DNA from: Escherichia coli
GTDB taxonomy: Bacteria > Pseudomonadota > Gammaproteobacteria > Enterobacterales > Enterobacteriaceae
Strand: one strand, 5' to 3'
NCBI RefSeq assembly: GCF_044324875.1
Contig: NZ_CP172185.1
Length of the DNA: 64,000 nucleotides
Position numbers: made by a program. Below, in pieces: positions 40,901 through 43,900 of the stretch (its first letter is position 1; each line of letters starts with the position of its first letter).

Positions 40901-43900
40901 ATAAATATACATGAACGCAAAAATCAGATACGGCCTGTCGGCTGCCGTTCTGGCGCTGATTGGTGCTGGCGCATCTGCTCCTCAGATACTTGATCAGTTT
41001 CTGGACGAAAAAGAGGGTAACCACACAACGGCATACCGCGATGGGTCCGGCATCTGGACCATCTGTCGGGGTGCCACGATGGTGGATGGAAAACCCGTTT
41101 TTCCCGGAATGAAGCTGTCGAAGGAAAAATGCGACCAGGTTAACGCTATTGAACGTGATAAGGCACTGGCATGGGTGGAGCGCAATATTAAAGTACCTCT
41201 GACCGAACCACAGAAAGCGGGTATTGCGTCATTCTGTCCCTATAACATTGGCCCCGGTAAGTGTTTCCCGTCGACGTTTTATAAGCGGCTTAATGCCGGT
41301 GATCGAAAAGGCGCCTGCGAGGCGATTCGCTGGTGGATAAAGGATGGTGGGCGTGACTGCCGTATCCGTTCAAATAACTGCTATGGACAGGTTATTCGTC
41401 GTGACCAGGAAAGCGCATTAGCCTGTTGGGGGATAGATCAGTGAGCAGAGTCGCCGCGATTATTTATGCTCTGGTTATCTGCATCATCGTCTGCCTGTCG
41501 TTGGCGGTCAATCATTACCGTGATAACGCCATAGCCTACAAAGAACAACGTGATAAAAAAGTCAGTGAGCTGAAGCAGGCGACCGCCACCATCGCTGACA
41601 TGCAGCAGCGTCAGCGTGATGTTGCTGCGCTCGATGCAAAATACACGAAGGAGTTAGCTGATGCGAAAGCTGAAAATGATGCTCTTCGGCGCAAGCTTGA
41701 TAATGGTGGCAGGGTGCTCGTCAAAGGAAAATGCCCTGTGCCATCCTCAGCCGAAACCTCCAGCGCCTCCGGCATGGGCAATGATGCCACCGTCGAACTC
41801 TCTCCAGTTGCTGGACGAAACGTTCTCGGTATCCGGGACGGAATTATCCGCGACCAGACAGCACTGAGAACGCTTCAGGAATACATCAGGACGCAATGCC
41901 TTCGATGATAGCGATAATTTTACTCATCATCCTTCACATCTGGCTCTGTAGACAGGGTGGTGATCACTTCTGGAGTGAATCCAGATTAAACATCTCATTG
42001 CTGATGCTTGATATTGAGCATCTGGCGCGCGGTAAGGGGCTGCGTTGAGATAAGAGCCAGTCATTAAAAATACCTGGATTTAGCCTCGCATTCGCGGGGC
42101 TTTTTTATTGCCATTACAAAAGCCACTCCCTACAGAGTGGCTTTGATAATGGCTTATACCCTACACGGGATAACTTAACTGATATCCCTTTTAACGGATA
42201 AAGGTATTCAAGCCTGACACATCATGCGCTGTATCGTCGCTGTATTCCCGCATTAACCATGACCGTAGCCCGACGGGGAACTCCTTCTGCGCGAGTGTGC
42301 GGGAATAATCAAAAACGATGCACACCGGGTTTTTACCGCGCTAATGATTCGCGGGTTTGTCCCTCATGCTCGCCAGTCCGGTGCGATGGTGGAAGAAACC
42401 GGAAGCTGTATTACAGAAAGTGCTACTACTGTATCCTGATGCGATGTATGTAATGTGAGTCAGATAATGGCACAGGATGTGGTGATGTGGCAGTCTGGAA
42501 CACAGGATATATTGTCAGAATAAGACCCGTAGGAATAAAAATGAAAAGACGCCTTTCACTACTTTTTCTGTTATCTGCCCTGGCAGTGGGATGCTCGCAG
42601 CAAAAAGCTGATGAGCCCCGGCAATTAGTGACGGTGTATCCACGATATCCGGAATATGCTGCAGCAAATTATATCAAGGGGCTGGTTGAGGTTAAGTTCG
42701 ATATTGGTGCTGACGGGACTGTGACACGGATCGTTTTTCTCCGCTCAGAGCCTCATAATTTGTTTCGTGATGAAGTGGTGAAGGCCATGGCGAAATGGAG
42801 ATTTGAAAAGAATAGTCCCCGTCAGGGAGTGAAGAGACAATTTATCTTTACGCCATCACGTCCCTGATGCTTCCAGGTAGAGAGGGGCTGGAAGCAGGAG
42901 AAAAATGAAAGAGCCAGCGGTTATATTTTTGTCATGGCTGACGAGAAATGATGGAAGAAGGCGTTGTATGCCACACAACGCCTCACTGTTCATTTCTTCT
43001 TTTTCTCTGGTGTAACCCGATGAATAAGAGTTGCACTGGTTTCCGATGAGATGGCGATATGCTCGGGCAAAGTATGCTGGCAGTTTTCCAACTGGTCAAA
43101 AATACCTGCTCTCGTCTGTTGCAATGCCTGCAGCATGCGGCGGCAATGCGCCTTTGCTTTTGCTAACCATCTTTCCTTACTCTATCAGTCGCTGCGTGAA
43201 CTCATCATGGAATACCAGGTAAATGCGGATGTTATCGGTTTTGGCTACGCAGCATAGTACAAAACGGACAGGTGCATCCCGGAATGGGGGAGGCGTCACA
43301 TGTCCCTGTGATGGTTGTTCCGGGTAATGCACTGTGTGGGGCATAAAAATGTCCGATAATTTTACTTTCTACCGCAGTTAGTTGATTCGTTGGTCCTGGT
43401 AGCACATTGGGCGAGGGTTTAAATGCCAGGCAACTGAAGGATGATGTTGCAAGGGAGATAGCGAGAATATTTCTGATTTTCATTTGATGATGCCTCTGTG
43501 TGAAATGACGGTAAACGACGCACTTGTGCCGGCACATAATAGCAAGCATCAGAATAGATCAGATTCGATTCTTGCTGTAAGTGATAATTATTCTCGTTTT
43601 TTTCGGGTCCTTTCCGGCGATCCAACAGGTTACGGGGCGTCGACCTCGCGCAAAACAACTCCTTATGAAATTTTTACGGGAAATTCAGATCCGTTCTTCT
43701 TTCTTGTAAGTCATTGTGTATATTGAATTTTATTTGTTCTGAGAAAGGATCTGATAAGGCTTCGTTTCGCCTGAAAAGGCAGTTTTAAGATCCTTTCTTA
43801 AAAAAACGGGTCATTTTCTTGCTGGAGGGGATGCTGGTGTGAGGGTTAACAAGAAAAAGCTGGCTGAGATTTTTGATGTTGATGTGCGGACTATATCCAC

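Follow-up and report, generated by a model that had tools for sequence, protein, structure and literature searches.

A conserved non-coding element of ~180 nt was found in a lambdoid prophage of Escherichia coli, within a stretch of 64,000 nucleotides from contig NZ_CP172185.1 (assembly GCF_044324875.1; hereafter the window). The element (hereafter the block; 42225–42404, plus strand) was delimited by a conservation profile, alignments and a covariance model, and it lay between the lysis genes and a gene for a lipoprotein with a TonB_C domain. Two terminator-like hairpins stood before it. The block was sharply bounded and non-coding, showed compensated pairing, kept a fixed orientation between combinatorial flanks, and contained a mosaic joint. 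It is probably a conserved functional nucleic-acid structure. The full reading, in which ordinary terminators are followed by an element that acts in cis on the late transcript and also serves as a recombination anchor, was given a probability of about 0.4. The terminators are ordinary; the conserved element, which carries no annotation, is not.

Distribution, borders and flanks of the block

A sensitive blastn search placed the block in 432 phage records, among them lambda, phage 21, Shiga toxin (Stx) 1 and Stx2 phages, mEp460-like phages and a Salmonella phage; Stx phages of the 933W type also carried it. It was present in 4591 of 5426 complete E. coli genomes (~85%), at 11769 places and with up to 11 copies per genome, which put it among the most widespread unannotated non-coding sequences of E. 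coli prophages. The covariance model found exactly one copy in the window. It also matched lambda at 46863–47039 (137 bits), between bor and lambdap78, and prophage DLP12 of strain K-12 at NC_000913.3 579004–579181 (144 bits), between borD and ybcV, where the curated K-12 annotation lists nothing. Further matches were obtained in the Sakai prophages Sp5 and Sp10 and in Salmonella phage 29485 (174 bits). Among 100,044 species representatives, an exact degenerate pattern gave seven matches, all in Escherichia or in probable contaminants of metagenome-assembled genomes; the block thus appeared confined to Escherichia and close relatives at the stringency used. No description of the element was found in the literature around borD/ybcV, ECs1217/ECs1218 and the lambdoid small RNAs (sRNAs) near Rz1/bor.

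The borders of the block were sharp. Across 88 unique contexts of 450 nt, conservation jumped at 42225 and dropped after 42404, and these edges coincided with the first and the last helix of the fold described below. The block was always downstream of the lysis genes and in the orientation of the late operon. In 134 contexts, five left neighbours and seven right neighbours were combined in many pairings. The left neighbours were bor (minus strand), an open reading frame (ORF) of 50 aa, Rz itself, a Rha-like gene and a Salmonella gene; the right neighbours were ECs_1967 (minus strand), a Q-like zinc-finger ORF, p78/YbcV (minus strand), Nu1, the TonB_C gene and small terminase genes of two kinds. 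The TonB_C gene stood to the right in just ~13 of the 134 contexts, present in some relatives and absent in others at this position, as in the moron concept (Juhala et al., 2000, as cited in PMC4104026). Because the block was found in hundreds of phages without a TonB-like gene, it is not a feature of this moron. In Sp10 the block started 8 nt after the Rz stop codon, which left no room for a promoter of its own; in Stx2 II, P13803 and Salmonella phage 29485 it ended 104–115 nt before the small terminase gene. The commonest context had a predicted minus-strand terminator to the right of the block, which would shield it from antisense transcription.

One of the right neighbours, found in ~28 contexts, was a 94-aa ORF annotated as a putative late gene regulator in Ayreon (L002 2080–2364). 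This ORF looked chimeric: residues 8–66 resembled the zinc finger of a Q-like antiterminator (phrog_127), and residues 64–87 resembled small terminase/DUF1441. From these similarities it was probably built from gene fragments.

A mosaic joint of the window fell inside the block. Megablast against phage genomes split the region into two overlapping parts, 41850–42403 with matches to mEp460 and Ayreon, and 42225–42900 with matches to phage 21. The two homologies overlapped over the ~180 bp of the block, which was common to mEp460, Ayreon and phage 21. Informative alignment sites and blastn identities placed the approximate crossover at 42378–42404, within the 3′ hairpin of the block. To its left the window followed mEp460-type variants, including a spacer at 42154–42224 that was present in ~65% of the sampled contexts by conservation profile and alignment; from the crossover rightward it followed phage 21, with 97.8% identity from 42404 to cos (blastn). 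The earlier note had tied the terminators to the TonB_C moron, as insulators against late transcription when Q is absent. They came instead with the mEp460/Ayreon-type module on the left, and the moron came with the phage-21-type module on the right. The terminators travel with the lysis-side module and the moron with the packaging-side module, and the two are therefore not a designed pair. For its part, the block is not the private promoter of the lipoprotein gene, because the joint lies inside it.

Downstream of the joint, 42404–42540 (plus strand) is a phage-21-type leader of the lipoprotein gene, carrying a small ORF killed by a nonsense mutation. An AGGA Shine-Dalgarno sequence was present ~6 nt before the ATG, and no consensus promoter was found in this leader. 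The small ORF, at 42386–42439 (plus strand), is a 17-codon truncated copy of the phage 21 ORF CPT_21_72 (45 aa), in which CGA was changed to TGA at 42437–42439. The CPT_21_72 homologue starts inside the block, and its 45-aa form was intact in 11 other loci.

As the sole constant sequence between two cargo-variable regions, the block would also provide a homology anchor for the exchange of cargo on both sides, its constancy being the reason for this proposal. The cargo exchanged would be bor, the 50-aa ORF and Rha on the lysis side, and the TonB_C lipoprotein, YbcV/p78, the zinc-finger ORF and ECs_1967 on the packaging side. Prophage sequences that have diverged can recombine with each other in a Red-dependent way (De Paepe et al., 2014; PMC3945230), and an anchor role is consistent with this. 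The linkers of modular theory and relaxed recombination (PMC3945230) are likewise short conserved stretches between reassorting modules, and here a real joint lies inside such a stretch. However, RNA-type compensatory changes and strand-asymmetric wobbles are not expected of linkers. Even as a mere recombination anchor, the block marks the exact seam at which virulence-linked cargo (bor/iss, TonB-like lipoproteins, Rha regulators) is swapped, and this seam can help to annotate prophages and to trace iss on plasmids back to its phage source.

Partial and repeated copies were also observed. The E. coli collection held 696 plasmid places of the block; these places were sampled twice (H121 and H122), and the one inspected (H121) was a 5′ fragment next to iss. 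In the ColV-type plasmid pFY26-1 (NZ_CP101742.1; L143 1501–1596), the first ~95 nt of the block stood upstream of iss, together with remnants of Rz/Rz1. As iss is the plasmid homologue of bor, this fragment is a trace of the descent of iss from the phage gene bor. Two copies ~950 bp apart occurred in prophage contig L088. Prophage contig L098 had a second, 5′-truncated copy starting at AATCAAAAACGATG; this copy was broken exactly at an invariant unpaired stretch and joined to cos-like sequence, an arrangement that suggests recombination within the block.

Fold, covariation and coding potential

On the late-sense strand the block would fold into one long, irregular hairpin on the 5′ side (P1-P2-P2b-P2c) and two further hairpins on the 3′ side (P4 and P5). 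In the 5′ hairpin, P1 joins 42233–42237 with 42315–42319, P2 joins 42243–42253 with 42297–42307, P2b joins 42263–42268 with 42287–42293, and P2c joins 42269–42271 with 42276–42278. P4 is formed by 42336–42340 with 42350–42354, and P5 by 42377–42382 with 42398–42403. The stretches AAUCAAAAACGAUGCACACCGGGUUU and GGAAGAAAC were unpaired and near-invariant. RNAalifold on 55 distinct copies gave −30.5 kcal/mol for the late-sense strand and −16.4 kcal/mol for the other strand. A possible GCAC:GUGC pairing of 42320–42323 with 42381–42384, which would compete with P5, had one covarying sequence (Salmonella).

The block had a conserved secondary structure with compensatory substitutions. For the count, 38 pairs (P0, P1, P2, P2b, P2c, P4, P5) were defined, and 34 representatives, obtained by clustering at 96.5% identity, were aligned with MAFFT from sequence only. 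On the late-sense strand 97.3% of the cells were paired, compared with 90.7% on the minus strand, as the wobbles favoured the late-sense strand, with 99 G·U against 15 A·C cells. Eleven pairs were changed on both sides, vs. 3.2 ± 1.2 in shuffled alignments, and 27 further pair types were seen, vs. 20.9; none of 500 shuffles reached either value. In slid controls, in which the partners were shifted by 1–3 columns, 31–61% of the cells were paired and at most six pairs were changed on both sides. The null trials of the counter itself gave 0–1% false positives.

The most divergent copy, in Salmonella phage 29485, had three consecutive compensated pairs in P2, where UAUUCCCGCA/UGCGGGAAUA was replaced by UAUCAUCGCA/UGCAAUGAUA, and three more in P5, where UCCGGU/ACCGGA was replaced by CUCGAU/AUCGAG. 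Within E. coli, P5 alternated between CCGGU/ACCGG and CCUGU/ACAGG (29 U-A vs. 21 G-C). A change from CCGCG/CGCGG to CUGUG/CGCAG was found in P4. In P2c the CCC/GGG stem was kept while its loops varied, and the whole hairpin was cleanly deleted in one lineage.

Relatedness alone might produce such covariation, if the block were a functionless homology patch, that is, an ancestral relic spread by recombination. The combinatorial reassortment of its flanks would fit a relic, and so would an identity of 75–87%, which does not exceed that of Rz next to it, the partial copies beside iss on plasmids and in L098, the lack of the block in P22, HK97 and HK022, and the listing of the flanking lambda genes bor and lambdap78 as non-essential (PMC10695390). 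However, non-coding DNA that is conserved like a coding gene implies constraint, and the edges of conservation fell exactly at helices. The changes on both sides and the further pair types exceeded those of all 500 shuffles, and the six compensatory changes of the Salmonella copy and the strand asymmetry of the wobbles also speak against a relic. A patch of this kind was considered unlikely.

Instead of RNA, the same strand in the form of single-stranded DNA might be where the fold acts, perhaps as a priming or assembly signal in rolling-circle replication. Covariation that tolerates G·T does not separate RNA from single-stranded DNA, and the orientation of the block is fixed relative to the genome. 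We know of no such single-stranded-DNA signal in lambda. Moreover, late transcription is the obvious way for this strand to be read whatever the context, and the element is dispensable; a role in single-stranded DNA was thus held to be extremely improbable.

The block also failed to behave like a protein gene. The earlier note had described ~400 bp without a convincing ORF, and 387 bp (42154–42540) without a credible gene were indeed present before the TonB_C gene. The longest ORFs in this segment were 64, 44, 33 and 31 aa, and none of them was kept as a reading frame in relatives. It is scarcely credible that the block is a decaying protein gene such as ORF C87/ECs_1218 or mEp460_059, for which the ORFs of 45–82 aa annotated across it in several records, and an ATGCAC start that opens into a hydrophobic N-terminus in some variants, would speak. 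The annotated ORFs (ORF C87/ECs_1218 of Stx phages, mEp460_059, CPT_21_72 and that of lambda) differed in frame and start. The window had TAA TGA in the mEp460 frame, phage 21 had a 16-nt deletion, Sp10 had ATA for ATG, and 1-nt indels occurred. Variable columns were spread 15/21/20 over the codon phases, so that substitutions showed no 3-base periodicity, and neither a conserved ORF nor a codon-position pattern was seen. Pfam gave no match for ORF C87 and a single chance-level match (E = 0.29) for mEp460_059, the two annotated ORFs that were scanned. Automatic pipelines call spurious hypothetical proteins across the block.

Possible roles of the block in the late transcript

Lacking its own promoter, the block would be transcribed solely as part of the Q-antiterminated late mRNA. 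Its fixed late-operon orientation and the excess of G·U wobbles led us to infer that transcription runs in the structured orientation. Judging from its position and fold, the block would act in cis and punctuate the late transcript where the lysis segment gives way to the packaging segment. The likeliest form would be endonucleolytic processing or a structure that stabilizes a 3′ end, and an override of terminators would be less likely. If the block acts on the late transcript in this way, it would add post-transcriptional control at a point that separates the lysis genes from the packaging genes, also in Stx-converting phages.

Two kinds of known RNA elements were compared with the block. Hairpins cleaved by RNase III, such as the R-sites of T7 and sib of lambda, share with it an irregular, extended hairpin with internal loops and ~25 stacked pairs, which stands between functional parts of a long phage transcript. 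However, the two extra 3′ hairpins and the long invariant unpaired stretches of the block would be unneeded in such a hairpin. The put sites of HK022 and the Bacillus EAR element are, like the block, structured sense-only RNAs in a long operon with terminators nearby. In contrast to them, the block lies downstream of the terminators in a late operon that already uses Q, and the likeness is one of description.

Several points weigh against this cis-acting reading. The role in cis is an interpretation of position and fold. The single-sequence folding z-score of the block was just −1.6, and the covariation comes from a few independent events among sequences that are 77–84% identical on average. 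Hairpins in single-stranded DNA of the same strand, being tolerant of G·T, would give the same covariation pattern. The strong conservation of the unpaired stretches suggests a specific binding partner, which a simple stabilizer would not need. By the covariance model, the equivalent regions of P22, HK97 and HK022 were without the block, although their Rz genes were homologous. In lambda, bor, lambdap78 and lambdap79 are listed as non-essential on earlier evidence in a CRISPR interference study, whose own assay also found bor and lambdap78 non-essential (PMC10695390). Since P22, HK97 and HK022 lack the block and its flanking lambda genes are listed as non-essential, lytic growth cannot depend on it, and lambdoid phages as a group do not require it. 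A link of the block to one type of Rz was likewise rejected, as those three phages have homologous Rz genes without it.

It is possible, if on balance doubtful, that the block is an undescribed phage RNA family in the late transcript of lambda and of most lambdoid prophages of E. coli. Such an RNA could serve as self-processing or RNase-guided punctuation, as a factor-independent antitermination signal, or, by way of its invariant loops, as a binder of a defence protein or host factor. If true, this would mean that a structured RNA has been overlooked for decades between bor and lambdap78 of lambda.

The earlier note had also proposed a small RNA in this segment. A conserved element with RNA-type covariation was present, which bears out part of that guess; no independent sRNA gene was found, and the element was not specific to the moron. 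The guess was the nearer miss of the two made for this segment, as it concerned a real structure, which is a widely shared late-strand element. Known families gave no support for an sRNA gene. No model of Rfam 15 (4227 models) matched 42154–42540 at the gathering threshold; at E values up to 10 there were just chance matches on the terminator hairpins (mir-458, STnc560 and AbsR28), and Rfam showed nothing on the block in six variant loci. ARAGORN found no tRNA or tmRNA in the segment. An Hfq-dependent sRNA with a promoter of its own and a 3′ hairpin with a U-tail was not seen either: the left flank was variable, and P5 had no U-tract.

A trans-acting sRNA, cut from the late transcript or made from an unrecognized promoter, might regulate host or phage mRNAs through the unpaired stretches. 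The moron sites of lambdoid prophages hold many sRNAs (Tree et al., 2014; PMC4104026), the stretches AAUCAAAAACGAUGCACACCGGG and GGAAGAAAC are invariant, and the block is an autonomous unit, independent of its neighbour genes. Against this, no conserved promoter was found upstream, where the left flank varies and may even be the Rz stop codon, the 3′ end lacks a hairpin with a U-tail, and the block is unannotated in K-12. In Table S2 of Tree et al. (2014), EcOnc01–33 and EcOnc38–43, recorded under one growth condition, were compared, and none of these entries lay on the block in Sakai; no Sp5 entry among them had the coordinates of the block. In the passages considered of the lambda RIL-seq study (ligation and sequencing of interacting RNAs), LPR1, LPR2 and 6S are the only lambda sRNAs named. 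A trans-acting sRNA was therefore judged distinctly unlikely.

The nearest peaks among those entries were EcOnc10/11/12 of Sakai Sp12, Sp10 and Sp9, which were very abundant in Hfq-CRAC (cross-linking and analysis of cDNA) and lay on the opposite strand. With a coordinate shift of ~+142 between assembly versions, the Sp10 peak mapped to the right edge of the block, at NC_002695.2 ~1946945–1947010 on the minus strand (L128 5945–6010). This RNA ends at the terminator hairpin that abuts the block, ~130–150 nt past the ECs_1967 stop, and it is either the 3′ end of the ECs_1967 mRNA or a separate sRNA. EcOnc10/11/12 (Tree et al., 2014) share the genomic neighbourhood of the block, but they differ in strand and their sequence is absent from the window; they were rejected as candidates for it.

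Other sRNAs of lambdoid prophages were also set aside. The convergent anti-sRNA pair AsxR/AgvB (RF02703/RF02702) resembles the block in being non-coding, with back-to-back terminators and a cargo site in the late operon. However, both lie upstream of the holin gene (PMC4104026), between pR′ and holin, and are 51–60 nt long with an end formed by a hairpin and U-tail, whereas the block comes after Rz, has ~180 nt, no terminator and no Rfam match. The Pas sRNAs were excluded, as PasA, PasC and PasD are beside holin or lysozyme genes and PasB is inside structural operons. LPR2 and 6S were rejected because of their site in the late operon, which they share with StxS, near pR′.

The other proposal of the earlier note, a promoter for the lipoprotein moron, lacked sequence support: no sigma-70-like site on the plus strand reached the threshold of the scan over 40500–44500, a scan that activator-dependent promoters would escape. 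Regulatory DNA for the TonB_C moron, or for bor in relatives, would agree with the position of the segment directly upstream of the lipoprotein gene and with the fact that morons usually have their own promoter. It would also agree with the records of HK629 and HK630, in which a minus-strand promoter (TGGACA-N15-TACAAT) is annotated inside the lambda-type block. However, besides the missing plus-strand consensus, most variants, the window and phage 21 among them, had degenerate versions of the HK629 hexamers (CGGTCA ... TACAGC), on which grounds the block was rejected as a promoter of bor. A PhoP-box promoter of bor (TGTTTAGGGTTTGTTTA) likely sits outside the block, in the interval that separates it from bor. 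The block occurred with many different downstream genes, and with none nearby, and compensatory changes and wobbles are not expected of promoter DNA. Taken as a promoter or regulatory DNA, the segment was a very improbable candidate.

Terminator hairpins and prophage setting

The pair of terminators reported by the earlier note was confirmed by the present analysis. The first was a canonical intrinsic terminator of the late-sense strand at 42082–42109 (plus), with a hairpin at 42082–42101 (8 bp, of which six G-C) followed by T6; the tail 3′ of the hairpin read TTTTTTATT, in RNA U6 and then AUU. The second was a long hairpin at 42110–42153, whose arms (42110–42128 and 42135–42153) had 19 nt each and were 89% complementary. 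Its inner G+C-rich stem of 7 bp, GCCACTC/GAGTGGC, was formed by 42122–42128 with 42135–42141. This inner stem was followed by UUUUGUAAU on the minus strand and by UUUGAUAA, a weaker tail, on the plus strand. The hairpin is thus plausibly a terminator in both directions, its minus-strand U-tail being the better one. The terminator consensus scan overlooked it because the extension of the stem swallows the T-run. By their sequences, both would qualify as intrinsic terminators, with a stable G+C-rich stem-loop and a U-rich tract directly 3′. The fold of 42060–42160 reached −40.9 kcal/mol on the plus strand (z = −7.2) and −40.8 kcal/mol on the minus strand (z = −6.0), and none of 200 shuffles equalled either strand. 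In the Ayreon record, the homologous hairpin was annotated as a terminator by its authors.

The two hairpins would close the module of Rz and the 50-aa ORF and halt a rightward polymerase unmodified by Q; they would also block leftward antisense transcription into the lysis genes. Insulation is a plausible role for them from sequence. Terminators at lambdoid module boundaries similarly consist of a G+C-rich hairpin and a U-tract right after the last gene of a module, and here two hairpins stand back to back and cover both strands. In contrast to those at lambdoid moron boundaries, the terminators predicted here belong to the lysis-side module and not to the TonB_C moron.

In the lysis-side module, the endolysin gene (40911–41444) was followed by Rz/Rz1 (41426–41908) and by the small hydrophobic ORF of 50 aa (41896–42048, plus strand), whose start overlapped the last 13 nt of Rz. 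This ORF matched phrog_11822 (E = 3.9e-38), which has no function assigned in PHROGs, and its homologues were labelled hypothetical protein in the mEp460 and Ayreon records. It was the final gene of the mEp460/Ayreon-type module on the left and was always accompanied by the two hairpins; with the terminators, it was 97.8% identical to mEp460 (blastn). The 50-aa ORF may encode a lysis accessory protein or a membrane peptide.

The TonB_C lipoprotein gene, or moron (42541–42867, plus strand), had the lipobox LAVGC and a Pfam TonB_C match (E = 2.6e-13), and it is annotated in the phage 21 record. PHROGs placed the lipoprotein in the family 'Rz-like spanin' (phrog_1267, E = 2e-40), a label that is probably carried over from genomic context and does not reflect a common function. 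The best promoter-like site of the region was antisense in this gene, at minus 42695–42668, with TTAACC, a 16-nt spacer, TATAAT and an upstream TG (10/12). It would drive an RNA of ~540 nt ending at the terminator at 42141–42112, and it may be due to chance, as five sites were found and 6.1 expected.

To the right of the TonB_C gene, ~770 bp led up to cos, followed by a Nu1-type small terminase gene at 43839–44387. When the region was aligned to the right end of phage 21, the cos region fell at 43600–43806, with cosQ and cosN near 43605–43635. Inverted and direct repeats after these, such as AGAAAGGATCTGA and TCAGATCCGTTCT, resembled in sequence the R sites bound by terminase. Upstream of the lysis genes, ARAGORN detected adjacent genes for tRNA-Met(CAT) and tRNA-Lys(TTT) at 39412–39565 (plus strand), the latter with just 31.2 bits in Rfam. 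A tRNA cluster downstream of Q is usual at the moron site. Distant from the block, the Peptidase-S11 RNA motif (RF03039) was matched over its full length at 13533–13613 (plus strand), with 72.8 bits against a gathering score of 34.8.

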